Below, piece by piece: positions 273 to 62,679 of a DNA stretch of 64,000 nucleotides; the first letter of the stretch is position 1, and each line of letters begins with the position of its first letter. The stretch covers positions 372,001 to 436,000 of the forward strand of contig CDROCS010001270.1 in assembly GCA_977020255.1 (NCBI GenBank). The letters run 5' to 3'. This DNA is from Obrimoposthia wandeli (lineage: Eukaryota). The notes under the pieces are model-generated. The model searched no databases. It saw nothing but the letters and a program-made list of their open reading frames with translations, and had not been told where the DNA came from. A program made the position numbers and the translations under genes.

Positions 273-330
273 TACAACAAGACGATTTGATTTTTATATT
301 AAATTTAGGAATACATGGAAGTGATCCCAT
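85..330 (-). CDS. Small MG...CC protein overlapping the integrase 5' end
   Basis: MGSLPCIPKFNIKIKSSCCNG...; homologous ORF at the same position in element 2 (49251-49481). Confidence 0.5.
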   Translation of the reverse strand: MGSLPCIPKFNIKIKSSCCNGENMVRSKSSRWLHRGFKISKRVKEGEKGNSGVVEKSISLQLKQTNETSVPNEIIQNEWAK

Positions 331-369
331 ATATAAATTCATATTATTGATTCAAATTTATGTTTATAA

Positions 370-1445: not shown

Positions 1446-2071
1446 AATAAAAATATTATATTATCGGGATAATGTTTATAAGACAAAGCTATTTAAAATA
1501 TATTATTATAATACATCCACTAAGAAACAATATAAAACAATATAAAACAATAAAAAACTCTTTTTTTTTTTTTTTGCTAAAGCTCTCTTATCTGCTAAAC
1601 CAGTAAAATTTGCTTATAACGATTCTAATCTTCTTTCTTCATATATCATATTTTCATTTCTTCTTACAAGAATAGTCATGTGATGTCATTGTCTTAAGAA
1701 TAAAACAGTATAAACAATATTTTGATAATGATTTTATTGAAAATGAATAATCAAAATAATCAAAATAATCAAAATAATCAAAGTAGAGCTAGTACATATA
1801 TAGGTTCCGGTAGTCATTTATATTCTAATATGAATTATAATAGAAATATTCAGAGAGAAAATATTAATCCATCAAGTCAAACAATAACAAGTCCTACGCG
1901 CGTAACCGAAGAACGTAAGCCATTTAAGGTTATGACTAATACTAAACGATTTTCATAAACAAGAATGTTAACCAATTGAGAGTAATCGATTTTCATAAAC
2001 AAGAATATCGACCAATTAGAATTGAGCTTTAGAGGATAAACAATTGAATATTTCAACTTATAATTTTATAT

Positions 2072-13791: not shown

Positions 13792-15080
13792 CAGGGTGTG
13801 GAGAAAGTCCCCGATCTCATAAAACGTTAAATTTAACAACTAATAAAGGTTGAAATTAAACAAAAAATAACACACACAATTTGTTAGAGCTCTATTTAAC
13901 ATTTATACTATCTATTTTTCAATGTGGCCGCCTTTGGCTTCAATTACACGCTCAAGTCTCCCACTGAAGCTCTTCACTGCGGCACGAAAGGATTCCTGGG
14001 GAATTTTGGCCCATTCCTGCTTAAAAGACTTCTTCAAAGCTTCTGTATTATCATGGGCTGTAGCGCAGGCCTCTCTCTCCAAGATGGACCAGACACAAAA
14101 GTCCAGAGGGTTCAAGTCAGGTGATGAAGGAGGCCACAATTCCTTCCTCCAGAAAGCTGGAAAGTGATTCTCACACCAGTCCTGAGTTTTGTGAAAGGGC
14201 GCACCGTCCTGTTGGAATGTGAAAGGGTCATTTTTGAAATGTTTCTTCATTTCAACATGGGCTGGAGTTAAAATATCCTGGATGTACGAGTTTGCGTTAA
14301 CTTTGGCACCCTCTTTAACAAAAATGAGAGAGGATCTCCAATTCTCAGAGATGGCAGCCCATACCATTACCGAGCTAGGTTTTTGGCGACGGTAAACGGA
14401 TTTTACCGAACTGGGAATGCAATCAGCACTCTTAGCTAAAATTCTGTCGTTCTGCGAGTTGAACTGGGCCTCAACAGTGAACATTTTTCATCAGAAAAGA
14501 CAATTACCCCAGCATCCGTGCCATCCTTCTTTCGGTTCAGGAGAATCTTGACTCTTTCGACCCTCTTCTGTTTTTGCAATTCCGTCAGTTGTTGTCTGTT
14601 GGTCATTTTGAAAGGGGATAACTTGAGATCATCTTTGACAATTGTTCTGACAGTTTTTTCGTCAACTTTGAAGTCCTTGGCCATTTTCCTCATTCTTCGT
14701 TTGGGGTTCCTCCTTATTCGCTCCCTAACGGCCTTTATTTTGGCTGGGGTGCGAGCAGTTCGGGGACGTCCACTTCTGGGACGATCGTCTGATGTCCCAA
14801 GTTCTTTGTATCGGTTTACTGCATCCCGAACTGTTGATTTTGGAGCTTTTAAGATCTTAACAATCTCTGGGTTCGTCTTTCCCGCGCAATGAAGTTGGAT
14901 AATGGCCTCACGTTTACTCATTTTAAACAAATGCAAATTAAATTTTAGGAAATTTGGATCTGAAACATATAAATATATGTATCTACAAACAAAATAAGCC
15001 AAAAATGGATAAATTTAGTTAAATAATAATATCTTGAATTCAATTTTCAAAATTCGATCGGGAACTTTCTCCGCACCCTG
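13792..15080 (-). mobile_element. maT/mori-like Tc1-mariner transposon, full length (1289 bp)
   Basis: 25-bp TIRs CAGGGTGYGGAGAAAGTYCCCGATC, TA flanks on both sides, internal transposase. Confidence 0.95.
13912..14921 (-). pseudogene. maT-like DDD transposase with one frameshift
   Basis: MSKREAIIQLH...GRPRTAR...IVFSDEK, then a 1-nt deletion in an A run at ~14484-14488, then FTVE...FQQDGAPFH...WPPSSPDLNPLDF. Confidence 0.92.
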
Positions 15081-36214: not shown

Positions 36215-37445
36215 TTTTTTGATTTTTTCAGTGTTTCTATTCTTCAGATTTTGTTTACTAATCTATAGAAGGGTACCAAAATTTTAAAGTATCCCTTAAA
36301 CTTTTTGTGGTCCCTATAGTGTTATTGATTGTTTTAGTTATTTGGTATAGGAGGATTAGTTGTTTTTTTCTAGAATGAAGACTTTCTTAATAAATCGATT
36401 TGGTGATTCTTTTGTTTTTGCTTGGCATATGTTTGTTATTTAATCAAGGTTCTTTTAAAAAATGTACTATTGATTATTTGTTTATTGTTAATGTTTTGTT
36501 TATTTTTGCAAGATTTACTAAGAGTGATATATTCACCTTTAGAAGTGAGCTACCTTTAGCTATGGTGGACCCAACCCCAGTATCTTCTTTAGATCATTCT
36601 TCTACACTTGTAGCTGCTGGTCTTGGGTTAGTTGTGTGGTTATGGGGTGGTTATTCTGTTAGTCTTGTTACTATAAATCGTTTTCGTAGTTTACATTTTT
36701 TACTGCCATTTGTAGTTTTATTTTTTGTGTTAGTCCATTTATTACATTATGCACGCTTAAACAACCCACTGGGTGTGAGTTCTTCTGAGGATAAATGGTT
36801 CAGATTTAAGGATTTTTATTTAAGTTATTTTAATCTTGTTTTAGTTTATTACTTCCTTTATTTATTTATGGACGAAGCTAAATTTGTACTTGGCAACCCC
36901 TTATCAACTCCTGTATATATTCAACTAGAGTGATATTTTACCTGCTTTTGCTATGTTACGTTCTATTACAAAAAATGTTAAGGGGTGTTATTGTTTTGAG
37001 TTTGTTTTTTTTAGTTTATTTTTTTCTCCCTTTGATTGGGTTCTAACATTTGTTTGTTGGTTTTCAATATAAATATCTCCACTAGGTATATTTTTTATAT
37101 GGGTTGTTAACTTTTTTTATTTTAATGTGGATTGAGGCAAAGCCTGTAGAAGCACCATATGTTATTATTGGACAACTATCTTCTTTCATTTTTTTCATAT
37201 TTATTTTTATTATATATTTAAATTATCACTACAATCTAAAGAGTTATTAAATTACTTATGTTTGCTATTTATCTAATTATAGTTTACTGTTTTTCAGGGG
37301 TTATTTTAGTTGTTAAAAAATGTTAGTTCTGTTATGGGTTATGTTAAATAGTTTTCACGACCATGGTATGCTTGTTGTTGTTCTAATTGCTTTTCTTGTT
37401 TTAGTTTTAATTACTGCTTATCTATATATAAGTTATTTTTATTTA
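36215..37445 (+). pseudogene. NUMT: nad5 fragment joined to cob, then a cox2-like piece
   Basis: nad5 (INRFGD; [25 protein letters not shown]); cob ([18 protein letters not shown]; NNPLG; NPLSTP.YIQLE-TGA-YF; AKPVEAPY..GQL); cox2-like FHDH. TGA read as Trp. Confidence 0.85.
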
Positions 37446-44374: not shown

Positions 44375-44487
44375 AGTTAAACATTTCGCTCTGTCTTGGG
44401 CTCATCAGACGGTTGGCGAGTGTTATCTCTGACTTCGCGGTGGTTGAACACCCGCTAAGGTAACAATGACATTAACAAGATAAGACA
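44375..44487 (-). repeat. Dispersed repeat copy B, left part (interrupted by Maverick 2; continues 59778-~60200)
   Basis: Minus strand CTGATGA-GCCCAAGACAGAGC-GAAA (44384-44408); homology to copy A continues on the far side of the Maverick. Confidence 0.5.
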
Positions 44488-45345
44488 AGAAGTGTAAAGT
44501 GTCGGTTCTAAAACAATAGCACACAAAGCCCTCCCCCCCCGAACAAGGCACAAGGAACAAAGCACATCTGAAATTTGATTAGTCATACAGATGTGCTTTG
44601 TTCCTTGTGCCTTGTTCGGGGGGGGGGGGCTTAGTGTGCTATTGTTTTAGAACCGACACTTTACGTCTCGAAATTTGTTTGGACTTATGCGTCACTTACG
44701 ATTATGTAGGTTAATATTTTGTAACATTTGTATATAGTTTAAAAANNNNNNNNNNNNNNNNNNNNNNNNNNNNNNNNNNNNNNNNNNNNNNNNNNNNNNN
44801 NNNNNNNNNNNNNNNNNNNNNNNNNNNNNNNNNNNNNNNNNNNNNNNNNNNNNNNNNNNNNNNNNNNNNNNNNNNNNNNNNNNNNNNNNNNNNNNNNNNN
44901 NNNNNNNNNNNNNNNNNNNNNNNNNNNNNNNNNNNNNNNNNNNNNNNNNNNNNNNNNNNNNNNNNNNNNNNNNNNNNNNNNNNNNNNNNNNNNNNNNNNN
45001 NNNNNNNNNNNNNNNNNNNNNNNNNNNNNNNNNNNNNNNNNNNNNNNNNNNNNNNNNNNNNNNNNNNNNNNNNNNNNNNNNNNNNNNNNNNNNNNNNNNN
45101 NNNNNNNNNNNNNNNNNNNNNNNNNNNNNNNNNNNNNNNNNNNNNNNNNNNNNNNNNNNNNNNNNNNTTTTGAAATTAAAAAATTTTAATTTTGAAATTA
45201 AACATAATTGACCGTCCCAAATTTTTATTTGCAACTATTTAATTTACTTAGTACTGCGACCTCATTCCAGGAGTTAGACTGCCCCGCATAACCGGACAGC
45301 TATCGCAGTTTTTATCATAAGAAACGTTATTGTTTATAGTACGAG
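44488..45345. repeat. Left TIR (contains N gap 44746-45167)
   Basis: Reverse complement of 59070-59777 on both sides of the gaps, with few mismatches. Confidence 0.95.
44494..44664. repeat. Terminal hairpin: 77-bp arms, 17-nt loop
   Basis: Arms 44494-44570 and 44588-44664; loop AAATTTGATTAGTCATA. Confidence 0.95.
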
Positions 45346-45394
45346 TCTATAATGAAGAAAGCAAAGTAACATCGATAAATATATATTAGTACAA

Positions 45395-46048
45395 TTATAA
45401 GCAAACTTGTCCATCAGTAATTTTCCAGATTGGTTTATGAAGACCTGTACAGTTGATTTTGTATCCCTGTATTGAAATGACGATCATCCACTTGAGTCCA
45501 GTTCCCATATTGTCAACATTAAAGTCGTGATCTCGCTTGAAAAGATTAGGATCAGCTCGAATTATTATATGATTCCCAACTATGATGTTGAGATGCATCG
45601 ACTCAAAAGTTTTGTTAAGATCATCAATATCTGACGGATTTAATCTATGTATCTTGAAATCGTATTTTGACGTATTCAGAGCCACCGGAAACATGAATCC
45701 ATATATGATTGGAGTCTTCAAAAAATTCATTTGCCAGTTATAAAACATAACCGGCTTGGTGTACTTCAAATCATTAGACTCAAATATTACACCTGATGGT
45801 TTATTGTTGAACGGTTTCTTATGTTTAGGTGTAGAGACTATATCATCAATAAAGAGATCCTCATTTGTTGCTTGCTTCTCAATCTTGATAGTCTTGGATT
45901 GTTTATTGTTGTTGCTTGTCATAGTTTGCTTCTTTGGTTTTGATATAAAAACTACATCATCATCATCATCGGTATCCACATCTGTGTCTGTAAGCCTTGT
46001 TGGTGGTGGCTTCTCGAACTTAAGAGATTTCGTTTGTTTATAGTTCAT
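45395..46048 (-). CDS. Divergently oriented accessory protein (217 aa), possibly OB-fold ssDNA-binding
   Basis: Intact ORF; acidic/basic N-terminus and beta-rich C-terminus (VISIQGYK...KPIWKI); function is inference. Confidence 0.7.
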   Translation of the reverse strand: MNYKQTKSLKFEKPPPTRLTDTDVDTDDDDDVVFISKPKKQTMTSNNNKQSKTIKIEKQATNEDLFIDDIVSTPKHKKPFNNKPSGVIFESNDLKYTKPVMFYNWQMNFLKTPIIYGFMFPVALNTSKYDFKIHRLNPSDIDDLNKTFESMHLNIIVGNHIIIRADPNLFKRDHDFNVDNMGTGLKWMIVISIQGYKINCTGLHKPIWKITDGQVCL

Positions 46049-46177
46049 ATCAAAATAATGAATTCTATACCAAAAGTGGTAGCTTATATATATATATATA
46101 TCATACTCGATTCTGATTGGATAATCTTTAGCTTAAAAATTTTATATATAGATTGGGTTATTTCCGTTAATTCAATC

Positions 46178-46666
46178 ATGAATCTTGCAAATATTAATTA
46201 TAAAGGTAAAGTTAAAGGAGACATCAGTCACTTACCCTTCAAAACCGGGAAACCATGTCAGTACGTGCACAGGTGTAAGGATTATACCCTTATAATCTTC
46301 CGTTCAGGTATGTTTTTATGTTAGTTAGTTAGTTAATTATTAGGAGCATGCAGGATAATGGGTTGCAAGAAACCTATTACTACAACTATGCTCAAGTGCC
46401 CATTTAGAATAAAGATTGATCGTATTCAATCAGTAACGGTTACTATCGATTTAGGTAAGAAGGTGAACCTATACAAGTTGTCTCAAAATTGTGGAGCTGC
46501 ATGCATGTTCGAACCAGAGTTGTTTCCTGCTTTGAGGTTTACAAAACACAATCCTCTATGCGTCAACATATTTGCAAGCGGGAAAGTGGTCATACTCGGT
46601 CTCAAGGATTTGGATTATCACTTTGATGTGACTTTGATAATAACTGATATTTTACTTTTGATATAA
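46178..46666 (+). CDS. TATA-binding-protein-like protein, 2 exons (46178-46307, 46344-46666), 150 aa
   Basis: 36-nt GTATGT...TTAG intron joins TLIIFRSG|ACRIMGCKK (repeat 1) to FEPELFPALRF...VNIFASGKVVILGLK (repeat 2; cf. TBP YEPELFPGL...IFVSGKVVLTGAK). Confidence 0.85.
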
Positions 46667-46707
46667 ACAATAAATTTTAGTTGAATTTTATTCTTACATG
46701 ATTTGAA

Positions 46708-47608
46708 ATGCTAGTTGATTATATACTTCATTATACAACTGTTGATGATGTTTTAGTTAGACGAAAAGTAGGTTATTCTAGAATGAAAGTTTTACATTGG
46801 AAATATAGACGTGAAAGTGAAAGATTAAGATCATTAATTATAAATTTTAAAGGGAAACAATCTGTAAATGATTTAGCAAAAGCCGGATTTTATAAACATG
46901 ATGATGATTCAACCGATAAAGTAAAATGTATATACTGTCAAGGTGCGTTATCCGAATGGGAATGGTATCTTAAACCAATGAAGCAACATATGAAATTTTT
47001 TCCTACATGTCCATTTCTTTTTAAAGTTAAATGTTTCAAATGTGCCAATAATTGAAACTATGGACAAGAAAATCGATTTTGATACATCACCATTGATTGG
47101 AAAAGTACATGTATCAGATATTGATGTAAAATTACCTGATATATGCTATTCAAAATGTTTAGGACTTTATAATGAGGCTAATGTTATTGAGAAAATCGAA
47201 ACAGATTGTATAATTGAATATCCTTTGACTATTGAGAAATTCGATATGTTGATGGATACAAACCAAATCAGATATTTGAAAAAGTTTTTCATGAAAGATA
47301 GAATAAAATCTGTTTTAAAATATAAAATGATGCGATATGGTGAATACAATTCACTATTTGAATTGCTTTGTGATTTATCTAATTTAGAAATGAAACCTGA
47401 AAAACAATATATAAATATACTTTCATACATTTTAAAGGAACCCGAATGTGTAGTATGTTTAAATAATCATATTGAAGTAGTATTTCTCCCTTGTGGACAT
47501 GTAAATACATGTATATCATGTTCTAGAATGTTACATTCATGTCCAGTATGCAGATGTTTGATCGAACGGAGAGTAAGAAATGTAAAATTTCATGATATAA
47601 ACAATTGA
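46708..47608 (+). pseudogene. Inhibitor of apoptosis (BIR + RING), split by a +1 frameshift at ~47020-47040
   Basis: BIR: ERLRS..LAKAGFY..VKCIYC..W..H....PTCPF, then NVPI in the next frame; C-terminal RING CVVC..FLPCGH..C..C..CPVCR. Confidence 0.88.
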
Positions 47609-47626
47609 AATTTATGATTTATATAA

Positions 47627-47893
47627 ATGGATAAAAACGATAAATTAGTTGATGATGCAGTCGAGGAAATTATAAACGGAACAATAAATGGAGTTCAATA
47701 CTTTTCTAGTTTTGATGGACTTTCGCGTAATAATATAAAGGAAATTGTTTGCACCCATGTCTATAGAGATATCAAACGGATTAAGGATTTTGAAAAATTC
47801 GTTCAAATTAATCGTTCAAACATGATGTATATAACCTTTTCTGCTACAATTTTTAATTCTCTGTTGTTGTATATATTAATAAAACGTATATAA
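47627..47893 (+). CDS. Hypothetical 88-aa protein with C-terminal hydrophobic anchor
   Basis: Intact ORF flanked by TATAAACAA motifs; tail MMYITFSATIFNSLLLYILIKRI. Confidence 0.65.
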   Translation: MDKNDKLVDDAVEEIINGTINGVQYFSSFDGLSRNNIKEIVCTHVYRDIKRIKDFEKFVQINRSNMMYITFSATIFNSLLLYILIKRI

Positions 47894-47923
47894 ACAATCG
47901 TTTCTTTTGATTTATTATTATTG

Positions 47924-48571
47924 ATGATGATAAAACTTAAAAATAACGCGGTTTACCAAATAGTAGGACCCAGTGGGAGTGGGAAAACACATTTTGTAAC
48001 TAAATTACTTCAAAATAAAAACATGTTTAATCAAAAGTTTGGTAGAATATACTGGCATTACGGAGGTGTAGGTGAATCTGGCCTAACACGAACTGAATTA
48101 GGTAAATTGAAAGGTATTCATTTTATTAATGGTTTTGATGATAAATGGTCTGAGAGGTTAAATTCAGGAGATGTCATTGTAATTGATGACTTGTATGATG
48201 AAGCGAATAAAGAGTCGGGTTTTAATAACCTGTTTACCAAAATAGCTAGACATAGAAATGTAACAGTGATTTTTATCACTCAAAATCTCTTTCATCAAGG
48301 CGGTCAACACCGTACTCGGAATTTAAATGTACATTATCTAGTATTATTTAAAAATCCGCGAGATCAAACGGTTATCGACTTTGTTGCCCGTCAAGCTTTC
48401 CCTTGCAATAAGCAATATTTGATTGACGCATTTCAAGATGCAACAACTAACCCTCATGGATACTTGTTTTTAGATTTTACACAGGAATGTCCAGACGATT
48501 TACGCGTGAGAACTGATATTTTCAATAATGATTTTGTATATAAACAAAAGAAAAGCCTATCTACTTGTTAA
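47924..48571 (+). CDS. A32/FtsK-like DNA packaging ATPase
   Basis: Walker A GPSGSGKT, Walker B VIVIDD, ARHRNVTVIFITQN; intact. Confidence 0.97.
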   Translation: MMIKLKNNAVYQIVGPSGSGKTHFVTKLLQNKNMFNQKFGRIYWHYGGVGESGLTRTELGKLKGIHFINGFDDKWSERLNSGDVIVIDDLYDEANKESGFNNLFTKIARHRNVTVIFITQNLFHQGGQHRTRNLNVHYLVLFKNPRDQTVIDFVARQAFPCNKQYLIDAFQDATTNPHGYLFLDFTQECPDDLRVRTDIFNNDFVYKQKKSLSTC

Positions 48572-48573
48572 TC

Positions 48574-48884
48574 ATGTCATTTATGAAAGAAACAATGCCT
48601 AGTGGAGTTGGACCTAAATGGAGACCGGGTGATAAATTACACGCTAATGATAACAAATTGATGCTAAAGAAGAATGCTCATATTAAAAATCTTATTAAAT
48701 CAGTGCTTCATCAGCGTAAAGTAGTCGATGAATCATTAAAGAAATCGGTAAAGACAGTAAAGAGAAACCTGTAAAAAAGAAACCATTAAAGAAGAAACCT
48801 GTTAAGAAAGCAGTTGGAAAGTCGGTTAAGAAGTCGGATAAAAAGCGTGTAAATAAACTAGTTGGTAAATGGATTAAACTATAA
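48574..48884 (+). pseudogene. Lys-rich basic protein; -1 frameshift at ~48760
   Basis: Continues in the -1 frame as EKPVKKKPLKKKPVKKAVGKSVKKSDKKRVNKLVGKWIKL*. Confidence 0.65.
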
Positions 48885-48915
48885 ACAATATTGCAAATAG
48901 TTTAATTCATTAAAT

Positions 48916-49245
48916 ATGTTATCAAAATCTATACTTCCCTACTTTCAGGCTTTAATCAAGGCTCCAAGCATATATAGACAACGTATACTCAAGTCATTTC
49001 CACCCTTTGTTATTGATAAGTTGGTTGAAGTCTTGTTTAATATTACAAAAGGTACTGTAAAAATCGGTAATCATAAACATAACCTTAGAAAACATCAAAA
49101 AGCTTTACTTGATTTAGTGAATACTAAAAGTAAAACTGGTAAACGTAGAGTAATTCTAAAACAAAAAGGTGGTTTTATCGGTGCATTAATACCTATAATT
49201 GCTACTTTAGTATCTCCTTTGATTGCAAAATTGATAAACTCATAA
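48916..49245 (+). CDS. Conserved Maverick protein with adenovirus pX-like C-terminus
   Basis: QKGGFIGALIPIIATLV resembles adenoviral pX GG.LP.LIP.IAAAI; homolog at 370-798. Confidence 0.8.
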   Translation: MLSKSILPYFQALIKAPSIYRQRILKSFPPFVIDKLVEVLFNITKGTVKIGNHKHNLRKHQKALLDLVNTKSKTGKRRVILKQKGGFIGALIPIIATLVSPLIAKLINS

Positions 49246-49250
49246 ACAAA

Positions 49251-49481
49251 ATGGGTAATAACATACCAAACATCGATTTTAAATTCACTTGTTGTAATGG
49301 AAACGATATGGTACGATCCCGAAAACCCAGCTGGGTACAGCGGCGTTGGCAAACTATCATTAAAAAGTCAATCGACTCAAAAGAAAACTCAGAAATGGCT
49401 GAGCAATCAGCTAGCATACAGTCTAAACAAGCCAATGAAGCGGAAGTTCCCGACTCGAGCATACAGAACAAGCGGTCCTAA
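49251..49481 (+). CDS. Small MG...CC protein overlapping the integrase
   Basis: MGNNIPNIDFKFTCCNG...; homolog at 85-330. Confidence 0.5.
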   Translation: MGNNIPNIDFKFTCCNGNDMVRSRKPSWVQRRWQTIIKKSIDSKENSEMAEQSASIQSKQANEAEVPDSSIQNKRS

Positions 49482-50332
49482 CGATTTATGGCAGGCCGAT
49501 TTGATGGAAATGATACCATATGCAAGTATCAATGATGGTAACAAGTATATTTTAACATGTATTGACGTGTTTACAAGGTATGCGCGTGCATTACCTGTAA
49601 AATCTAAATCAGGTAAGGATATAGAGGCTGCTCTAAGTATAATGACTGATAAAACTGTCCCCATACATGTGCAAACTGATAAGGGTAAAGAGTTTTACAA
49701 CAAAAATGTAGGTAGTTTATTTAAAAAATTAAATATTGAACATTACTCTGTAGTTTCACAATTCAAAGCTGCCCTAGTTGAAAGGTTTAATAGAACATTG
49801 AGAGATCGATTAAAAAGACATTTTATTGTACAAGGCAATAAAAGATGGGTTGACGTTTTACCAAAAGTAATGACTTCATACAATCACAGTAAGCATAGAG
49901 GTTTAGACGGATTGAGACCTGTCGATATTAATGATAAAAAATGCAATGGAAATTTGGTTGAGTCGTAATCAAGTCGATAAAGTTAATAAACCCAAACATA
50001 AGACTGGTGATTATGTTCGGATATCAAAGTTTAGTGGTAGCCCCTTTATTAAAAACTTTGATCAGAATTGGAGTGATGAAGTGTTTAGGATAGAGAAAAT
50101 AGACAAACGTGCAAATCCTGTAATGTACTCTATAGTTGATGATGACTGTAATGTAATAACAGGGAAATTTTATGAACCTGAACTACAAGTAATTGATAAA
50201 CCTACACTTTTCCGTATCCAAGAAGTCGTAAAATCTAAAGGCCGTGGTAAGAATAAACAATATCTCGTAAAGTGGCATGGATATTCTGAATCAACATGGA
50301 TCAAAGCAAGCCAGATAGAGACTTCTATATGA
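49297..50332 (+). pseudogene. rve integrase with C-terminal chromodomain; +1 frameshift in A6 (49936-49941)
   Basis: WQADL, LTCIDVFTR, VQTDKGKEF, VERFNRTL; then YRISK...FYEPELQ and QYLVKWHGY..STW. Confidence 0.95.
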
Positions 50333-51464
50333 TTTTACCGAGTAATAGTTGTCCGAAAACTCAACCTAATAATATGGCTTCATTATTCACTGTAGATTGG
50401 GAGAATCCAATTACGTTAAATGGTAAATGGGAGGCGGCATTAACTGAATTTACGTACACAAACACTCCTGTTATTTTAAATAAGGGCAGTGAAATTAATT
50501 ATTCTATTAAATTCTCCAATCAACAGACTGATCAAATATCTTTATCAGTAATTCATACTCAAGTAGAAGTAGAAAAGAAAGAACCGCAATTGCATGGTGA
50601 TAAATCAGAACCAAAAGTTATTAAAAAGACAATTAATAAAATATCAAAACTCACCGTCACGTCTAAAGATAAGATTGCAAAGCTTTCTATTTCCTTAAGC
50701 ACAGTTGGTGTAGGTATTGATAAAAGGATAATGTTGTACTAATAAAATCCGTCAACAACAAAAAATTCTATATCAAGATGGATGCTGACGCTAAAAATGA
50801 ATTAGGATTCATTTTCAATACATTAACTTCAGAAGGTTTCGAATCTGATGATAAAGGAGTTTTACTTGGATCAACGTCTATCAGACCTGATTGCAGTGCA
50901 CATAATTTACAATATATGCATTATAAAACCGGTTCATACAACAAGAAAATTGTATTTACAGAAGATTTAAATAATAATAATGTAAATGCATTAGTAGCAT
51001 ACATTAAATCTAAATGCGACGTCATATTTAAAAGATTTTATATTGATGATAATGATAAGCTAATAAAATTTGTATTAAAGAATGGAATTGAGCATATTGG
51101 ATTTGATCAACGTTTAATGTATGTATTAGGGTTAGATAAATCACGATTTACGGGCAACGGGTCTGGACTACCTCGATTAAATTACGAGTTTGATCACATG
51201 TACTTGTATTCTAGTCTGTGTGAACCTGTAAACGTTGGAGGTCAAATGATACCCTTATTAAAATCTATATGGTTAGATAAAAATAAAGCACCAGGAGACA
51301 CGGTTAATATCGCAATATACAGACCCATGTATATCCCTTTAGCATCAAATGTAATCTCAAACATTGAAATTAATATTAGAAACGATGCAGGTGTTCCAAT
51401 AAGTTTTTCCAACAATGCAAAAGTATCCCTTACCATACATGTCCGTTGTATAGATCAGGTATAA
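50296..51464 (+). pseudogene. Minor capsid (penton/PX) protein; -1 frameshift at ~50721-50740
   Basis: DFYMILPSNS...GKWEAALTEFTY N-terminus; MYLYSSLCEPVNVG..PLLKSI..YIPL..IEINIRND.G C-terminus. Confidence 0.88.
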
Positions 51465-51500
51465 ACAATCTGTATTCAAAAATAGTTGTCCATTACAGTT

Positions 51501-51898
51501 ATGAATATAATTGAGACATTTAGTGGGCCTCAACAAGGTGGTGAATTACCATATTTTGTAGGTAAACAGTACGGTTCGGGATGGTTGAAAACATTGGGGC
51601 GGTTAGCATTCCCTATACTGAAAAGATTAGGCCGTGTTGGAGTTAAAACAGTTCAAGATGTAGTAATGAACAACAAATCTGTGTTAAACAACATGCACTA
51701 GGGGAAGTTGCCGGAGCCATACCAGAGGCTAAGGAAGCTTTTGGTACTGTTGTTAAAATTATTAAAAATCGACGTAAACGTAAAGCAAGTGAAGCAGCAC
51801 AAACGGTTGAACCCGAAACTAAAAAGCAAGAGGGTAGTGGTAGAAAGAAAGCATCTAGTATAAACAAACGAAGAAAACAAGGTACTATATTTGCTTAA
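51501..51898 (+). pseudogene. Core (pVII-like) protein; frameshift at ~51690
   Basis: QQGGELPYF.GKQYGSGWLKTLGR.AFPIL; alternate frame ALGEVAG...RRKRKAS...QEGSGRKK...KRRKQGTIFA*. Confidence 0.75.
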
Positions 51899-51900
51899 TA

Positions 51901-52919
51901 ATGGCTTGTGGTAAATCTGAATTATGTATTTTTGATCGAGCTTTGCCCCAGGTAGTTGTAAGTAATGGTAGCTTTGACAATGAATAACAATGAATAATAC
52001 TGTAGTAGAAACCCATCCTCAATATGCACAAAAAGCTATGATTGAAACCATACTAAACTATAGCACAGACACTAAAGACACTTGTTTGTCGAGTATAGGT
52101 TATGATGATGATGATGATAAGCGTAAAGGTTGGGCTGCTCGCTCAAAAGAAATTGACTTGTGTGGGACTCTTCGATCAGATATTTTTGAGCAACCAAAGT
52201 ATCTCTTACCTGGTGTGTCTATCATGGTAAGACTTGTACCTAATAAATCTATGTTTTGTCTGAACTACGGAACGACTCTAGCGCGAATCATATTTATTGA
52301 AGCTAAACTTAAAGTCAGCAGAGTCAGAGTTGAGAATGATGTTTAAATGGGACATAATATTGGTCTTGAATCTAGGAATGCTGTATATCCCTATACTCGC
52401 AGAAAGCTAATGTATCATACCTTAGCCATCGGTTCTACGAGTTTTTACAAGGATCAAGTGTTTGATGATGAACAATTGCCTAAATTTGTGTTGATTACGT
52501 TGCAAGCAGGTGAAAAACTTATCGGTAATGGTGCTACAGACTCTTCAACATTCGATCATTCTAATGTTAACACTATCAGTCTTGCTAGAAACAGTGATTT
52601 TAACGAATCTTACAGTACAAACTTTGAAACAGGTGAAACCACCTTTGCATATGTCCAATCTATCATTAGAAATATGGGTAATTTGGATAAGAATATAAAC
52701 AATGGCGTATCACTGGATGAATTCAAAACCAAATATCCATTTTTCACGTTTGTTTTAGCCCCTGACTTTGATATCACGCAAAACCAATTAGCAAAACAGG
52801 GTAATTTACGCCTTGACATCAAGTTTCACAAGTCATTAACAGTCCCAACAAACGTACTGATTTACGGGATTTTTGATTCTGAGTTTGAAATAACTAAAGG
52901 CCGACGTGTGATTGTATGA
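51901..52919 (+). pseudogene. Major capsid protein (PY/hexon-like); internal deletion and nonsense codon
   Basis: MACGKSELCIFD start; break at 51985-51990; Y..KAMIETILNYS, DIFEQPKYLLPGV; in-frame TAA 52344-52346; LPKFV, FDHSNV, GNLRLDIKF...VLIYG. Confidence 0.9.
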
Positions 52920-53296
52920 AGTGAGTTTTTAATTTATGTTTTAAGATTTTATTAATCCAAAGTACTGTTCAGGTGAATGAAATAACTAGTTTGCTGCTCG
53001 GACCGCGATTTAAGGGTGTATACCCGTTGGAAAAAATCCCAACATTAACGCCTGGGGGATATATTGTCAATACACATACCTCAAATCTTCCTGGAGAACA
53101 CTGGATTGCGTTATTCGTGAGACGGAATTCTGTACATGTGTATGACCCTCTTGGAGTATACTATCCGGGAAAACTTATCAAGCATGTAGAGTCTCAAGGA
53201 AAACATGTATATTACAACAAAATTCGTTCTCAAAACCCACTGACTACTAATTGCGGTCCACTATGTATCTTATGGTTGTATGATCAAACTATATAA
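52916..53296 (+). CDS. Adenain-like cysteine protease, 2 exons (52916-52920, 52963-53296)
   Basis: Catalytic H/D/C motifs GEHW, YDPLG, Q...CG. A 42-nt GTGAGT...AAAG intron gives MNTVQVNEIT; the ATG overlaps the MCP stop codon. Confidence 0.88.
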
Positions 53297-53681
53297 ATGT
53301 CTGTTTTTTATTTGTGTTGATTGGTAATAAAATTTGTATTCAAAATTGTATTTGTTTTATAAATAGCTGCCCCATTGAAATTTAAAAATTTTATTTTGAG
53401 TTTTGATAAATTAAAAAATAGATTTAAAATCTACTAATTAAGAAAAAATTAATGGTGTTAATTATTTTTTAAAATTTAAACTCTAACGGTGTGAATATCG
53501 GTTATGAAAAATTCATAATTGATTGACCGTAATTAACCTTTATGATCACGTGTGTAGCAACTAGGGAATAAAGAGTCTTTATTACGCATTCCTAGTTTGT
53601 AAGTACACACGTGATGTGTGACGTGTACATCTAGGGCAGCAACTACACTGATTGTGAACCATATATAAACAATCAGTGTAG

Positions 53682-56600
53682 ATGCATTCATCAATTTTAT
53701 CGCTATTATCAAAAGTAAGTATTTTGATTTTATTTTAATTTTATTTAATTTTATTTCTTTAGATGTCAAAAATTATTTTTGCCCGAAATGGAAAGAAAAT
53801 ATGGACCATAAAGCCTCCTTTAGTCGATATGGATGATGATGTCGACTTGGATGCGACACCGGTTAAAAAAGTAATTTGTTTTATTAGTATTTTTAATTTA
53901 ATTTTCATTTAGCCCAGTGTCACAACAACACCAATATCGATTGCACCATGGATTGCGGATGATGCTACTAAGAAAATAAGAAGAAAACAGAAGATGCCGA
54001 CAACATATGATGAGGATAATGATGATAAGAAGAATCCAAAAGTTTTTTTATCTCTTGAGAAATCTTCTCAACTTCCTTCTTCTTCTTCATCTTATTCTCA
54101 TTCTCATTCTCATGTTTTGTCTCCATATGACGATCATTTATATAAACTTTTTGGGGATATAAGGGATATAAAATCTTATTCTCCCGACTGCGATAGCTGC
54201 CCGGTAACGCGGGGCAGTCTAACTCCTGGAATGGGGTCGCAGAATAAGTTAATTAAATCAAGAGGTTACCCCTTACTTTTTAAACCAGGAACACCTGTTG
54301 GGTCACCTGTTAATTCAGTAGAAAATTTCGACGTAAATGAAATATACTCGGGTTTTGAAAATATCCCGTTTAAAAAATATTTTAACCAGTTAAAGAAAGC
54401 TAAAAATCAAAATATTGATTTAAGTAAACTTAAAACAGAAGGTAGGAAAGGTAAAAGATTTCGTCAGAAGCTGCGTAGATTGAGAAAACTACCAGCAGAC
54501 ATAACAATATTTGCAAATTTATTAGGGTCTTGCAAACCCATTAATATTAGTCCAGGTCTGAAAATTACAGATCTGGCAAATAAATTATATAAAGTCTTTG
54601 AGACTGATCAAATTTATTTTAACCGTAATGGCATGCCCTTTGAAAGGGAAGCTATTATCGGTGATGTTTTACATGAGGGGCTATTATCCATGTATACCCT
54701 AAACTTCGTGGAGGAAGTAACTTATGTACATTGTACAAGTATTGCACAAACGTTAATCATGGAATAGAATGTCATAGTGTAATGCTTAAATATTATAAAT
54801 TTAAAAGCGGTTTTATTTGTCCACATTGTGATGTGTTATATTGTATTGACTATCAAACATTTTATAACAATCATAAGGATCATCTGACGTATTTTAAGTC
54901 TAAAAAGTCAGCATACAAACGTAAAGTAATGAGAGTACCAACAATATACAACAATAAAATAGCAAAAACTAATAATTTTAATGAAGAGTTTGATGTGGTA
55001 GACTCGTGGGAACCGGATAGTGTTGTAGAAATTGATACTTATCCTGAAGTTGTAGAAATTATTGAGCCTTTAAGCCCTAATGAAATCTTAAATAATAATA
55101 ATATTGATGAACTTATAGATCAGGACGAGTTTATAACAGAAAATGATTTTTTCGACTCACTCCTAACTATTACGGATGATGACTTTGATAATATTGTTAC
55201 AATTAATTCAGATAATACATTAACTTTTAACAATCAAATAGGAGGTGCAATTCAATCAAACCTTGTTTTTGATGTTAGTGGATTAAACATGCTTAAACTA
55301 TACATTAACGATACTATGCTAACTGAACTTACTAGCAGTATAGATGTGTTTGGTCCCTGTAAAATACAGTTTGGTGTTGAAACCGAATTTGTCAATAACG
55401 AGGGTCAACATAAAACATGGCATGTAAGCTGTAAAGCAAATATTTTTGAACAAGATTTTATCACTACAAGAACAGTTGAGCTCAACAATAAAATTGAAAT
55501 TTATAAGGATATGAGTTCGGGATGGTCAGTATTTAAAATTCTGTTGGTATCCTTTAAATTTACTGCACTTTCAAACGTAGCAGGATCATCATCTATAAAA
55601 ACCCCGGTTGCGCTTGCTAAAACACTATCTATAGTGAACGTAAATAATACTGATGATCAGTGTTTTAAATACGCTGTTCTCAGTATCCTACACTATAAAG
55701 ATTTCAATCGAAACAGACAAAGAGTTGAAAACTATAATGATTATTTAAATGAACTTATATGTGAGCCTGGTCCTATGAGGATAGACGGCATCAAGGCGTT
55801 TGAAAAACTCAATAATATAGCGATAACAGTATTCTCCTATAAACCTACAAAGGTAGAGCCTCATAGTAGTCATCTAGTGTTTAAAAACCCAGATGTTAAT
55901 GTTATTTATAGAACGAGTCTTAAACAGTGCGAAAAAGTAGTAAACTTGTTGCTGTTGGAACAGAGCGGTAATTATCACTATACAGGGATAACAAACCTGA
56001 ATAGACTTTTAAATACTCAAAAATATAATGTGCGTCTCTTTTGGTGTGAGAAATGTCTTTTTGGATTTCGAACCACGATTTCATATGACAAACACAGGGC
56101 ACATTGTAATATTAATACAGATTTAACAACCTTGTTTACAATGCCCAAAGAGATCAAGTGTCAATTTTCCGACTGGTCTAAATCTATTGCGCCACCATTT
56201 GTTGTATATGCCGACTTTGAGTCAATACTCGAGCCACATAATACTTTCAAACATATTCATAAACCAATATCTATAGGGATGATTTTGAAAAACAACACTA
56301 ATAATTCAATACAATATTTCAGTTATTACGGTCTGCAGTGTGCTAAAAACTTTGTAGATAAATTAACTGAGTTGATAAATGGTGAAGTGGCAGATTTTTG
56401 GGTAAATAGTATTAATGTTCCTATGGTTTTTACTAATAATGACATGTTGAACTTTAGAGATTGCACTAATTGCTATCTTTGTAAAAAATTAAACGATCGT
56501 ATGGTTAGAGATCATGATCATATCACGGGTAAATACTTGGGTGCGGCATGCAACAAATGCAATTTAAGTCGCAAGTTTGCAAAGAGACCGGTTTTACCTG

Positions 56601-58526
56601 TGGTGTTTCAAACCTTATGGGTTATGACATACATCATATTTTAAAATATGCCGACTTGAAAGGTAAATCCTTTTCAATTATCCCTAAATCAAGTGAAAAG
56701 TTCATGTCCCTCCGTATAGAGATGAAGAGGGGGACATTGAAATTCATTGATTCATACCTTTTACAACGTCAAGTCTTGAATCCTTAGTTTCATACTTGCC
56801 AAGTTGTCCTTATACTACACAATACCTAAACCCTAATATTGCAACAAGTAAGGCGGTATTTCCGTATGAATATATTAGTGGTGTTGATAGGCTTATGGAG
56901 ACGCAGTTACCCGCTAAATCTGAGTTTCCTTCTCGAGTCACTGATCAACAATATAATGAAGCCCTAATGATGTGGACCGTATTAGGGTGTAATACTATTA
57001 AAGACTACATGCTTGAGTATATGAAACTTGACGTGTATCTCTTATGTGATGTTTTTGAGGCCTTTAGACAGAAAGTAAGGGATGATGATAATCTAGAGGC
57101 GCTCAATTTCTTTAGTATCCCTGGTCTCAGTTGGGCTAGCGCATTAAAAACATTAGAGTATGATGTGGATTTATTGCATGATCCCGAAATGTATAACATG
57201 TTTGAGGCAGGGATACGGGGAGGGATGACTTTCATCAACAAACATTACGTTAAAACAACAGATGAAACATTCCTTCTATATATTGACATAAATAACTTAT
57301 ATGGTTGGGCCTTGAGTCAACCGTTACCACATACAGATTTTACATGGGTATATGACGGTTTTGAAGCGATAATTGAGCTTATAACTGAGAGGGATATTCA
57401 CGGTAATATGCAGGACTTGAGTCTTAAAGAACATGGATACTTGTTGGAAATTGATTTAGGCATACCCATCAGTATTCATAATAAACTTGATGACTTACCG
57501 ATTGCGCCTAATAGAGAAATCCCTCCCGGCTCAAAAGCTTCAAAGCTGTTGATGACCCATGAGGATAAAAATAATTACATCATACACTCACAACTACTAC
57601 AATTTTACTTGTTTCTGGGTGCAGAAATTAAACAAGTGCATAGAGCAATAAAGTTTCATCAAGCTCCTATATTTAAAACATATATTGATATCAATAGCCG
57701 GAAACGGGCAGAGGGTACTACTACATTTGATAAAGAGTTTTATAAACTCAAAAATAATTCAATATATGGTAAGACAGTGGAAAATCTTAAAAAGCGTAAA
57801 GATATCCGTCTTACCAAGAATGATCGTCAGTTTACTAAACTTGTTTCAAGCCCCTGGTTTAAGAAGCATACCCAAATAACCGACAATCTCAATCTTTTAT
57901 TTATGCAAAAGAAAGAAATTTGTCTGGATCGACCATCATATATTGGTCAAGCTGTGTTGGACTTATCTAAACTACGTATGTACCAACTACAGTATAGTGA
58001 TCTTGACCGGTATCGTAAGCAATATCATTGTGATATCAACATAGTTGCAATGGATACAGACTCGTTTTTCTTAGAGTGTAAGCATATAGATAAAGATGTC
58101 CTCTTAAAACAAATGATTAAAGATCAGATGTTAGATACAAGTAATTACCCGATCACACATGAGTTATTTAACGATTCTCATCGAAATGTGATTGGAAAGT
58201 TTAAAGATGAAAGCAAGGGGACAGTGCTTTATGATGAATGGGTATTTCTGAAACCTAAATGCTACTCATTGAAAACGAGTATGAGGGCTAAGGGTATCTC
58301 CCTTAAACAAACCGAAATCAGACATGAGCATTACATAAAGTGTTATGTTGATGATGAAATTATAACTGCCGGTCAGACACGTATTTTATCTCGCAATCAT
58401 CAATTATTTACAATGTATAATGATAAAATTGCGTTAAGGTGTTATGACGATAAAAGGGTTTGGCTTGAGAAAAACAAATCCGTCGCATATGGACACTATA
58501 GTCTAAAATCTGGGGTAACCTCTTGA
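53682..58526 (+). pseudogene. Protein-primed DNA polymerase B polyprotein (5' spliced; UBL-LRGG, ZnF, TP-like, EndoVII-like, exo, pol); three -1 frameshifts
   Basis: Introns 53715-53762 and 53871-53912; shifts at ~54678, ~56610, ~56760; YADFES, NLMGYD, VRDHDH..G..CNKCN, YIDINNLYG, KLKNNSIYGK, MDTDS, FLKPKCY, KGIS. Confidence 0.95.
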
Positions 58527-58691
58527 AAGTATTAACTAATATCCTCTTATTTTTAATGTGATAGTATGTATCTTTTTAATGCAATAGTATGTATATATTT
58601 TTAATGCTATAGTATGTATATATTTTTATTGATGTTAATTTTTAATACATTGTATGTATCATAACCATGTCTTGACTTCCTACTAGCTACT

Positions 58692-58742
58692 CATTGGATA
58701 ATTTCATTGGATAATTTCATTGGATAATTTCATTGGATAATT
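58692..58742. repeat. 14-bp tandem x4 carrying ATTGG (reverse CCAAT) boxes
   Basis: (TCATTGGATAATT)n, ~60 nt upstream of ATG 58802; a ~27-bp x3 repeat also lies at ~58552-58627. Confidence 0.8.
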
Positions 58743-58801
58743 TTAACAAATTCTCTATAAATATAAACACATTTCAATCAACCAATTTCTCATTATTTCA
58801 A

Positions 58802-59044
58802 ATGACTACTTCTAAAGAAAAATTGCAAGCTCTCTATGATAACCTGAGCCCTACCTTGATGGCCCAGTATACTGAAAAGTACTTTAGCTTATTTGTTGCA
58901 CCAGAACTTTTTGTCTCAAGGATTGAAGAACTTTATATGTATCACCTGTTTAATGGAGACTTTAAACCTAAAGTTGCAACAATCATTAAAATAGAAGAAG
59001 AAGAAGAAAGCATGGATTGTGACAATGAATATAATTATGTATAA
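58802..59044 (+). CDS. Hypothetical 80-aa acidic-tailed protein
   Basis: MTTSKEKLQALYDNL...EEEEESMDCDNEYNYV*; no family recognised. Confidence 0.5.
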   Translation: MTTSKEKLQALYDNLSPTLMAQYTEKYFSLFVAPELFVSRIEELYMYHLFNGDFKPKVATIIKIEEEEESMDCDNEYNYV

Positions 59045-59069
59045 ACATAGACTTTTTTTTTTTACTAAA

Positions 59070-59777
59070 CTCTTACTATAAACAATAACTTTTCTTATGA
59101 TAAAACTGCGATAGCTGTCCGGTTATGCGGGGCAGTCTAACTCCTGGAATGAGGTCGCAGTACTAAGTAAATTAAATAGTTGCAAATAAAAATTTGGGAC
59201 GGTCAATTATGTTTAATTTCAAAATTAAATTTTTTNNNNNNNNNNNNNNNNNNNNNNNNNNNNNNNNNNNNNNNNNNNNNNNNNNNNNNNNNNNNNNNNN
59301 NNNNNNNNNNNNNNNNNNNNNNNNNNNNNNNNNNNNNNNNNNNNNNNNNNNNNNNNNNNNNNNNNNNNNNNNNNNNNNNNNNNNNNNNNNNNNNNNNNNN
59401 NNNNNNNNNNNNNNNNNNNNNNNNNNNNNNNNNNNNNNNNNNNNNNNNNNNNNNNNNNNNNNNNNNNNNNNNNTTTTTGAATTTTAAGTTTTTTAATTTT
59501 AAGTTTTTGAAATTTGAAATTTTTAAACTATATACAAATGTTACAAAATATTAACCTACATAATCGTAAGTGACGCATAAGTCCAAACAAATTTCGAGAC
59601 GTAAAGTGTCGGTTCTAAAACAATAGCACACAAAGCCCCCCCCCCCGAACAAGGCACAAGGAACAAAGCACATCTGTATGACTAATCAAATTTCAGATGT
59701 GCTTTGTTCCTTGTGCCTTGTTCGGGGGGGGGGGGGCTTTGTGTGCTATTGTTTTAGAACCGACACTTTACACTTCT
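59070..59777. repeat. Right TIR (N gap 59236-59473), with terminal hairpin 59601-59771
   Basis: Inverted copy of the left TIR; loop TATGACTAATCAAATTT (59677-59693). Confidence 0.95.
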
Positions 59778-62679
59778 AAGACAATTGAGCCAATTCAATC
59801 TTCCATCAAAGCGAAGTTTGGGGGAAATTATTTACCTCCCCTGAGATTCGCCAGGACTGCCTCAGAACGGACTGCCCCGGATTCGCGGTTGTCAGCAGCA
59901 ATAGCACCAGTCGGTAACATCTGCTGCGTCCACTTCCTCTCCCTCCTTTTTTATGTGGCCGACCTTCCTCGCCATTCTTATCAGGTAGCGTCTGTATCTT
60001 CCCGATGCTCTATTCCCCGACGACCAGCCGCTAGTTTTCTATCCCTCTCTCCGTTCTGGCTGAGTCTGCTTCACCTTATCTGTCTTCTCCCTCCTCCTCA
60101 TTATATTGTCGCACAGATTGAGTGGCAATCCAATACATACATGACCTCCCTCTCTCGGAATGTGTCGCATATCTCAGTGGTCTGGTATTTTCGTGGATCA
60201 AAAGAGGTCCTTTTCGATTAGCTAAACTATTTTGTTTTAATAATTATTGTACATACACAAAACTTACTACATAAATTAACAAACAAATAGTAAATCTTTT
60301 AATTTGTGTTAATTCATGAGTTACCCACTTTTCTAACTTTTACACTATATTCTCTACAGACAAATGCCTGGAAATGGTACATAATTGTGAGTTCCCCATT
60401 AGTACTACAAGGATTTGATTTGACAGCTAGTTATCTATGGTAATAGGAACTCCACAACCTACTTGGTTTTCTAAGTCAGTGATGCCAGATTAAAACTTTC
60501 AAATAATTTTTAAGCGGTTCTCACCAAACGCTATATTAATATTTCTAAATGCTTCCGCTTTCGTGAGATCTAATTCATATTCATATAAAAATAATTCGTT
60601 TTTGATTCTGATGCATACCAAATTCGGAGTCACTTATCTGATATAAAAATTATCAAATTGTAAAATTGTTCTACAAAAATTTAATAAATGTACAATAAAT
60701 GAAAAATGCAGGTACAAAATTTAATTCATAAAACTAATATAAAGATGTGTTAAAATTCTGACATTGAAAACCGAAATTAATTATGCAGCATCCTAATTGT
60801 TTCATTTAGCCTGTTCAAAATGGTTTGTAAATGTGTAAATGTTATCAAATATTTAGCGTATTATTAAAAGCAAAATGCTTATTTATATTCTCATTTAATT
60901 TTAAATATCTTCAACATCATTAACTTAAATAAAATTGTTTTAATCTTCAAAATCAAATGAATATACAAAATTTAAAACATTACATAAAAACTAAAATATG
61001 AACAACTTTAAAAAATAGAAACGTAATATTAATATAATTCGACAAATGACATTACTCATTTGTCAAATTCAACATTCAAATATAATGAAATTCTGATTCA
61101 AATTATTCAAAATCATTATTAATTAAATTCTTCCTTATAATTACTACAACTGGTGCATCGTGTAAATCATTCATCCAATTTGATGTCATACAAACATGTC
61201 AATTCAAATCGCAGAAAATGAAGAAGGACCTATACAGTGCAGTTGCTGAGCAGAGTATAAACCATATGCCACTAATGAGATTGAGACTTAAATTTCAGTT
61301 TTTATGCAACAAAAAGTCGGTCGGCTTGACTCAGGTTAATGGAAAATTTGAACAAAATCTAACCAATATCACTGTAACCAATGGTAACAAATGCTTAATC
61401 AACTCAACGAAGAATCGGTTGTAAGCTGCTACTACAGTTGTCCATGGAGAAAGCTGAAACAACTGTGGGCATTGGTGTAAGTGATTTAAGATATATATAG
61501 ATAGATGTACGTTGTACATTGTCAGGTTTTTGGGGCTTGTTTATGCTGTGGACTTGTAAGGGAAATACCTGCTTATTGTCTGGCTTACAAAGACAGCTAC
61601 GTCAATTTTCCTCATTCGAGTAAACTTTGAAAAGTTTAATTTGTTATATTTACATAAAAACGTGTTGAATCTTTCATGAATTTGTTAGATTTATATTTGT
61701 TTTGGATTATTTTGAAGAAATCACTCTGAAGTTGGAGGATTTTAGTTATTGTTCAGTTATTTTGTTTGTTTGATTAGTTTGATAATATATTTATTAAGTT
61801 TCAGCTACAAAACTGATTAAATTCAAACGGAAATTTGATTATTTAATCTGATATTCATACATAATCAGACTTTATGGTATGCGCGGATGAATTAACTTGC
61901 TGGTAATACAGACGATCGCTTATAATTAGTTTTAGCATTTGTTCAACAGAGGGCCTCAAAATGTTAACATATTTATCGCTAAAATAATCAACCATTTGGG
62001 AACAGAGGTAGAAAAATACATCCAAACTTCATCTCTAACGAACTGTAGCTTTTCAAATCAAACTAATCAACACCAATGGTCGGTACCGTCCAATGAAAAC
62101 TTTCTTTCGTCAGTGAAAACAGTTCTAATTGTGTCTTAGCTTTTAGTTAATCGGATAAGCTACACTCTTTCCGATTAACGAACCTGGTCCACCTAGAAAC
62201 CTCTAAGTTGCAATCGTTTATTAATTCAGGTACATTGATGTTCTCTCCAATTTGAATCTATCGAGAAATTTCTCTTTTAATTCGTAACTGGAACTATTTA
62301 TTTAAGAAATTTTCTTCCCCTTTTTTCTGGGATTTGTAACCATTTTATAGTGGAATAAATTTTGAACTGAACTTGTAGAAACACTTAATAAATCAGCAAA
62401 TTCAATGTGAGACTTTTGGCATCTTCTGTGATCATTCCACATTTTGATAAGCAAGCTCTAAGTTTATTAACAAAATTTAATATAGTCACTCACTTTCTTA
62501 AAGGAATCAAAACAAAGTCTATTTTTTAGGATGAATGGTAACAGTTTATAAAGAATGAATTTGTTGAAAAATATTTCGGTTTATATAGTTAAAACGTTAC
62601 GTAATATTTTAATGAATAAAAACTTTGTTAATGATTATTCGATGTGATGATTGTAGTTGAACTATGTCCTCTGGATGAT

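Follow-up and report, generated by a model that had tools for sequence, protein, structure and literature searches.

A Maverick polymerase family encoded behind a predicted ubiquitin-like domain whose LRGG tail meets the apparent ancestral start

Introduction

The DNA analysed here, a stretch of 64,000 nt referred to throughout as the window, carries a Maverick/Polinton element whose DNA polymerase (pPolB) is preceded by an unusual reading frame. An initial annotation had suggested that the two halves of a ubiquitin-like domain (UBL) ending in LRGG lie hidden across a frame break at this point, the second half running directly into the polymerase. The locus therefore raises the question of whether leader, UBL and polymerase are normally encoded as one protein and, if so, what becomes of the junction between them. 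The OTU domain of Polinton polymerases bears on this question, having been proposed to be an active protease, for which no substrate is known to have been demonstrated.

Results

The element and its polymerase gene

The host genome comprises 1.35 Gb, and the window has a GC content of approximately 30 %. The element (Table 1) is bounded by TIRs, part of each of which is N in the window, and its gene set comprises pPolB, an rve integrase, a packaging ATPase, an adenain-like protease and a double jelly-roll (DJR) capsid protein, as is characteristic of Maverick/Polinton elements (Polintoviricetes). At the Pfam level, rve and Pox_A32 scored above the cut-off and Peptidase_C5 and DJR below it. Its ORFs matched TBP, BIR, RING, packaging ATPase, protein X, integrase with chromodomain, double jelly-roll capsid and adenain families, and relatives of its pPolB carry PF03175.

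Accessory genes at 46358-47608 encode a TBP-like half domain and, in two frames that overlap, a BIR followed by a RING. Both ends (44494-44664 and 59601-59771) are palindromes of approximately 170 nt with a 17-nt loop, with orientation flipped between the ends. A 70-nt GC-rich stretch lies at the inner end of both TIRs (45245-45312 and 59105-59175), and a version 85 % similar to it sits within the coding part of the leader (54187-54257); a three-way-junction fold is possible for it (z about -2 to -2.7), and an Rfam scan over the element, this stretch included, returned nothing at gathering score. Elsewhere in the window, a Tc1/mariner-like transposase in two frames (13912-15014, minus strand) and a decayed cytochrome-b-like fragment (36394-36933) were recognized by eye. 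The genome also holds a second abundant Maverick family (loci L116-L125, with an example at window positions 1-1448, minus strand). The polymerase of this second family has a start Met of its own and is separated from the protease by an additional ORF, the beginning of which looks exonuclease-like by eye.

The polymerase gene of the element is predicted to be spliced, with a short first exon and an intron that ends at the start codon at 53763; it would therefore not start at 53994, the beginning of the 257-aa ORF. The combination of splice acceptor and start codon (AG/ATGTC) was present in 73/80 copies, and the two coding exons were compatible in phase in 35 of 72 copies by a crude automatic call, the remainder including copies with other breaks. 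The predicted precursor consists of a leader of approximately 230 aa, a UBL of 73 aa and a polymerase of approximately 1265 aa, in the order leader-UBL-LRGG/SNLC...TP-PolB. The leader is acidic and Ser/His-rich, becoming Lys/Arg-rich directly before the UBL; it had no Pfam match and no similarity to the 217-aa ORF at 45395-46048. Two more frame breaks are present in the pPolB of the window copy, near 56610 and 56758.

Table 1. Positions in the window of the element and the parts of its polymerase gene. A slash marks a junction or putative cleavage position.
Feature	Position	Strand	Remarks
Maverick/Polinton element	44488..59777	.	15.3 kb; TIRs with palindromic ends
6-bp target duplication flanking the element	44482-44487 and 59778-59783		AAGACA
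Adenain/Ulp1-like protease gene	52973..53296	+	Peptidase_C5 E 0.005; has the His, Asp and Gln-Cys motifs; second protease candidate after the OTU domain
Predicted promoter and first intron of the polymerase gene	53662..53762	+	TATATAAA 53662-53669 (TATA box); TCAGT 53673-53677; GT..AG intron 53715-53762
Predicted leader, ~231 aa	53763..54497	+	Exon 53763-53870 (108 nt); 42-nt intron 53871-53912; exon from 53913
Ubiquitin-like domain (predicted beta-grasp), ~73 aa	54498..54715	+	
Frame break of the window copy at a single-base run	54675..54680	+	
LRGG tail	54704..54715	+	Predicted cut after 54715
Cys/His-rich module, the N-terminus of related polymerases	54716..54910	+	
Terminal-protein domain, little-finger/PAD-like fold	55226..55576	+	Identification follows PMC11161782 (accessible text)
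QIGG/A (NQIGG/A)	55235..55249	+	Ahead of terminal protein; putative site of the adenain-like protease
NVAG/S before the OTU domain	Gly 55583-55585	+	
Viral OTU protease domain	55598..56005	+	Catalytic Cys codon 55661-55663; His codon 55976-55978
Remainder of pPolB	56006..58526	+	Endonuclease-VII-like finger 56456-56566; exonuclease; polymerase

The fused frame is the normal state of the family

In the window copy the two halves of the UBL lie in different frames. The 257-aa ORF (53994-54767) contains DITIFANLLGSCK...DQIYFNRNG...IGDVLHEG, and the polymerase frame contains AIIHVYPKLRGG/SNLC. A pattern with a free gap between anchors flanking the break gave 901 genome matches, with the frame kept in 88 of the first 100 listed. 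The first 80 matches on this list were fetched without selection; the frame was kept at the break in 69/80, LRGG/S continued into the polymerase in 64 of those 69, and 52/80 stayed open across the entire domain and the module after it. A second pattern, matching the flanks of the LRGG codons, gave at least 1061 genome matches, with LRGG encoded in 93 of the first 100 listed, and these junction copies are mostly less than 3 % apart. The fused LRGG-polymerase frame is the normal state of this Maverick family, as the initial annotation had supposed from the broken window copy.

The break itself is shared by close relatives of the window copy. All 40 copies scored in a DNA search that ranks by identity matched the window exactly over 321 bases, break included, so that at least 40 such copies exist. 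Within the 80-copy sample the break was enriched among the nearest copies of the window (8/20 versus 3/60, p=4e-4), broken and open copies interleaved in one young clade, and the break recurred in four copies elsewhere; its distribution required 10 label changes versus 11.5 when shuffled (187/2000). Elsewhere in the gene, one-base losses were just as frequent (13 and 12 copies). The window break may be an inherited mutation or a long-read error.

A divergent ubiquitin-like fold is predicted

An AF2 model of the domain alone, built from the single sequence of a natural copy (mean pLDDT 57), contained strands at residues 7-13, 16-22 and, last, 68-71, together with a helix at 28-39 and a second, short helix. 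At this low confidence it follows the strand-strand-helix-strand-strand-(helix)-strand order, and Gly-Gly stands at the end of the fold as in a processed (type I) ubiquitin-like precursor. The top 50 Foldseek rows for this model were ubiquitin, NEDD8, SUMO, PB1 and similar, with ubiquitin/NEDD8 topmost (prob 0.97-1.00, best E 3e-3), and the top 50 VIA-align rows were nearly all beta-grasp-type entries (Z 4.7-6.7, middling by the scale of the tool). ESM Atlas placed a ubiquitin cluster at rank 7 (0.90), behind unnamed clusters at 0.91-0.92. These three routes (AF2, Foldseek and VIA-align on that model, and language-model features) share one sequence. In a second, alignment-based model, in which the other rows were without the domain, the UBL formed over its first half only (pLDDT 31-58).

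End-to-end alignment to five ubiquitin-like domains from the genome gave 16-20/73 identities, with z 3.8-8.0 versus 1000 shuffles, or 2.4-6.2 with the tail kept, in a targeted, after-the-fact test. Local searches were blind to the domain: there was no Pfam match, with the PF00240 cut-off missed, PDB phmmer returned nothing relevant, and a local profile scored -0.5 bits, a value equalled by 11-15 % of shuffles. The domain is approximately 25 % identical to ubiquitin, has His and Gly at ubiquitin-like positions and carries a Pro in its tail. It is predicted to be a divergent ubiquitin-like fold, distinct from ubiquitin itself. The end-to-end ubiquitin alignment in the initial annotation and its expectation of a beta-grasp fold were both borne out, though the latter by a model of low confidence.

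Variation among copies suggests constraint on this region. Taking variants found in three or more copies as shared, the final 77 codons of the leader gave a ratio of synonymous to nonsynonymous changes of 11/6 for shared versus 19/43 for rare variants (p=0.02), while the leader end and UBL together gave 16/12 versus 37/94 (p=0.007). Judged by these ratios, both stretches are under purifying selection. The UBL alone gave 5/6 versus 18/51, which was non-significant (p=0.28). No shared changes occurred in the LRGG tail, among copies that are too similar to gauge its long-term conservation.

The junction coincides with the start of related polymerases

The junction was compared with related polymerases drawn from 120 homologous proteins and 83 related loci, choosing those that begin with the Cys/His module. 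Twelve sequences from approximately 10 lineages had a Met within approximately 0-4 residues of GG/S, with starts such as M-TNLC, M-SNC and M-NYLC against GG/SNLC; three of these rows represent one sister family, the second Maverick family of the same genome, one further locus of which was unlocated. At eight loci among the 12, an in-frame stop was present 1-42 codons upstream. Many other homologues among the 120 had differing N-termini. The polymerase frame of the element has no Met at the junction, its first Met lying 22 codons on, inside the Cys/His module. The chance of LRGG falling within five given positions by composition is approximately 3e-5. Alignment with these relatives thus places leader-UBL-GG at what appears to be the position of the ancestral start Met. 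Because the relatives start with Met at the junction and have no UBL upstream, a cut after Gly-Gly would restore the usual N-terminus, and the position of the junction makes such a cut probable.

No Pfam family covers the Cys/His module. In addition, separate proteins (P0124, P0129-P0133) contain tandem repeats of it.

Searches for the same arrangement in other polymerases, as the initial annotation had envisaged for Maverick pPolB N-termini, found none. A ubiquitin-like domain was absent from the first 300 aa of the 120 homologues (called proteins, in which upstream exons could be missed), and the best E value of the element's UBL against the 83 related loci was 0.49. A word-based homologue search recovered the domain in 0/35 candidates (proteins of 779-2482 aa only). 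HMMER against 1.84 billion representatives returned 10 hits, six to the Cys/His module and four repeat artefacts, with a true relative of the UBL absent, and relatives of neither the UBL region nor the TP-OTU region were found in IMG/VR. A degenerate pattern meant to pick up any diverged sister family sharing the LRGG tail gave one match, a point variant. Among the data sets searched, the UBL-LRGG design was found in one Maverick family only.

An OTU domain with catalytic residues lies in the same polypeptide

A 71-row alignment model placed a little-finger-like terminal protein at residues 247-363 and an OTU fold at 371-506 (Z 7-8). A PRD1-type terminal-protein fold is therefore followed by an OTU fold with catalytic Cys and His, the arrangement of TP-vOTU pPolB. 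The OTU Cys and His were invariant in 71/71 rows, window element included, which makes the OTU of the element a candidate protease with its catalytic residues retained. The initial annotation had presented the UBL as a different solution from the OTU module; since the OTU is kept with both residues, this contrast fails and the UBL is an addition.

In the accessible text of PMC11161782, a cleavage site is proposed where the terminal protein meets the OTU domain, and OTU cleavage of pPolB is treated as a hypothesis. This junction has a Gly in 68/71 rows and reads PLRGG/SY in homologues P0075 and P0103, and NVAG/S in the window element. The other Gly-Gly sites of the element, NQIGG/A and KQKGG/F, have Gln at P4 rather than Leu, and a Q-x-G-[GAS]-x motif was found in the N-terminal part of 12/23 closest relatives. 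The conserved Gly, the PLRGG/SY junctions and the precedent of a viral OTU that cuts both LRGG-like polyprotein junctions and ubiquitin (PMC8348309, accessible text) favour the OTU domain of the element itself as the most likely enzyme to cut LRGG/S, a role to which we would give slightly less than an even chance.

Ubiquitin-Gag fusions occur in the same genome

BEL/Pao-type retrotransposons of this genome carry near-canonical ubiquitin without Met, ending in LRGG or LKGG, in frame between a leader and Gag. A ubiquitin-family genome search gave 5275 first-look candidates, 150 of which were scored, and 20 hits were chosen for long frames or high score outside polyubiquitin genes. A Met-less UBL stood in frame before a Gag-like protein in 19/20, with GG kept in 15/19. 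Pfam identified ubiquitin and DUF1759 in 4/4 tested fusions (E 1e-21 to 1e-25), and a YMDD motif was present downstream at two loci. The fusions form about three families with dozens of copies (L187-L204 and L206; e.g. L187:1922-5245 and L191:2864-4525) and arose independently of the polymerase fusion. Hits such as L205, on several contigs, consisted of tandem ubiquitin-like units of approximately 89 codons, with a stop where Gly-Gly would be.

Discussion

We consider it likely, with a probability of roughly 0.7, that the leader, with its predicted fold and its LRGG, forms a precursor that is cut right after Gly-Gly, giving the N-terminus at which relatives start with Met. Most copies would make the polymerase in one frame behind leader and UBL, and cleavage directly after Gly-Gly, by the element's OTU or otherwise by host deubiquitinases, would leave a polymerase beginning SNLC. 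A single promoter would then yield leader and polymerase 1:1, release of the polymerase would be under proteolytic control, and the second product would be a leader-UBL with a free Gly-Gly end. Among the observations that speak against this reading, the Pro in the tail and the low identity to ubiquitin may hinder ubiquitin-specific proteases, and the TP-OTU junction of the element, NVAG/S, is unlike LRGG/S.

A possible but doubtful alternative is co- or post-translational cleavage by host deubiquitinases, as in ubiquitin-ribosomal fusions and the BVDV inserts, with the OTU freeing the terminal protein only. BEL/Pao elements are not known to encode a protease other than an aspartic one, and the ubiquitin-GG ahead of Gag in those of this genome would rely on host enzymes; the exact LRGG tail and the His and Gly at ubiquitin-like positions would suit the same route. 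Most host deubiquitinases, however, require the surface of ubiquitin as well as its tail, and the Gag-fused domains are near ubiquitin whereas the polymerase UBL lies beyond the reach of Pfam. A viral precedent is provided by cytopathic BVDV, in which ubiquitin inserts yield the authentic NS3 N-terminus (PMC8310069, accessible text).

It is also conceivable, though unlikely, that the domain is never removed and acts as an integral UBL, either controlling how much polymerase accumulates or binding partners such as the proteasome, p97 or PCNA-type proteins, LRGG being a leftover of a captured gene. Its strong divergence from ubiquitin is consistent with this, as is the non-significant selection test for the UBL by itself, tail included. 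Integral ubiquitin-like domains usually lose Gly-Gly, however, whereas here drift has spared only the tail, whose end coincides exactly with the apparent ancestral start. Nematode Maverick cargo does include N-terminal UBLs that apparently regulate abundance (10.1101/2022.07.12.499685, accessible text).

Cleavage of LRGG/S during particle maturation by the adenain/Ulp1-like capsid protease, one of the enzymes that the initial annotation had named as able to cut the fusion, appears quite improbable. The protease gene is indeed present with its motifs, Ulp1-family enzymes mature ubiquitin-like precursors at Gly-Gly and the adenovirus protease consensus accommodates LRGG. The case is nonetheless weaker than proposed, because the other Gly-Gly sites of this lineage have Gln at P4 (QIGG/A, QKGG/F, and Q-x-G in about half of the closest relatives); a folded UBL would, moreover, be unnecessary for such a site. 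Least credible by far is a programmed frameshift giving a short leader protein and a rare long fusion, for although broken copies identical to the window are numerous and cluster near it, and the other frame stays open for 29 further codons, most copies are open, broken and open copies interleave, the break recurs elsewhere, one-base losses are as frequent at other places in the gene and a canonical slippery heptamer was not seen by eye.

Returning to cleavage by the element's own OTU, an extended form of that proposal, rather unlikely as a whole, would be a private ubiquitin-like system in which a captured ubiquitin drifted from host recognition and became matched to the OTU, making polymerase release self-gated. 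The freed leader-UBL Gly-Gly might then act on the ubiquitin pathway of the host or be conjugated within it, possibly together with the BIR and RING genes of the element; neither E1 nor E2 was found among the element ORFs scanned, and a RING finger gene is present. If this were so, two unrelated classes of mobile element would, given the ubiquitin-GG/Gag fusions, have converged on ubiquitin spacers that release replication proteins.

A Maverick polymerase encoded behind a predicted UBL leader, with an LRGG junction at the apparent ancestral start, is a real feature of this family. Neither a UBL on a Polinton polymerase nor a ubiquitin-Gag fusion was found in the openly accessible literature searched, and 'ubiquitin' occurs 0 times in 10.1101/2023.08.22.554363, PMC8097293, PMC12721341 and 10.64898/2026.10.13.758929. 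The element carrying this design has also expanded recently and far, with at least 1061 copies of the junction, full-length or not, compared with a maximum of 287 elements in the accessible text of a vertebrate survey (PMC8097293).

Cellular genes and RNA viruses already provide examples of the ubiquitin-fusion design, which is seen here in a DNA virus-like element. The cellular fusions Ub-L40, Ub-S27a and FUBI-S30 are likewise UBL-GG/partner precursors, FUBI being divergent. In these the UBL is the N-terminus of a cellular gene, whereas the Maverick UBL is preceded by approximately 230 aa. The element shares TIRs, 6-bp duplication, integrase, ATPase, capsid and protease with Polinton/Maverick elements, and its polymerase shares the order of TP, OTU with Cys/His, exonuclease and polymerase with the Polinton pPolB TP-vOTU-Exo-Palm (PMC11161782) and the adintovirus OTU-PolB (PMC8502044); relative to the pPolBs described in the accessible texts of these papers, the window family adds approximately 300 aa, a predicted spliced leader and UBL-LRGG in place of the start Met. 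WASP and KRMA, cargo of nematode Mavericks, similarly have a divergent N-terminal ubiquitin fold on a Maverick-borne protein, but are proteases and kinases rather than a polymerase, and a Gly-Gly cut is undescribed in the accessible text (10.1101/2022.07.12.499685). In BVDV strains Osloss, CP1 and CP Rit, as here, leader-ubiquitin-GG stands in frame before a viral replication protein, and a cut gives the authentic N-terminus; those inserts are near-exact host ubiquitin, stem from recent RNA-virus recombination and are processed by host hydrolases (PMC8310069, accessible text), whereas the Maverick domain shares approximately 25 % identity with ubiquitin and is a fixed part of a DNA element that is present in approximately 1000 copies and carries its own OTU. 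The Maverick family places a candidate OTU substrate bearing a ubiquitin tail on one polypeptide with the OTU, and comparison with relatives fixes where the junction lies. A parallel to OTU cleavage of this junction is found in tymoviruses and marafiviruses, where one OTU-fold enzyme acts on both LRGG-mimic junctions and ubiquitin; according to the accessible text these viruses mimic the four-residue tail only (PMC8348309), whereas the Maverick polyprotein is predicted to hold a whole ubiquitin-like fold.
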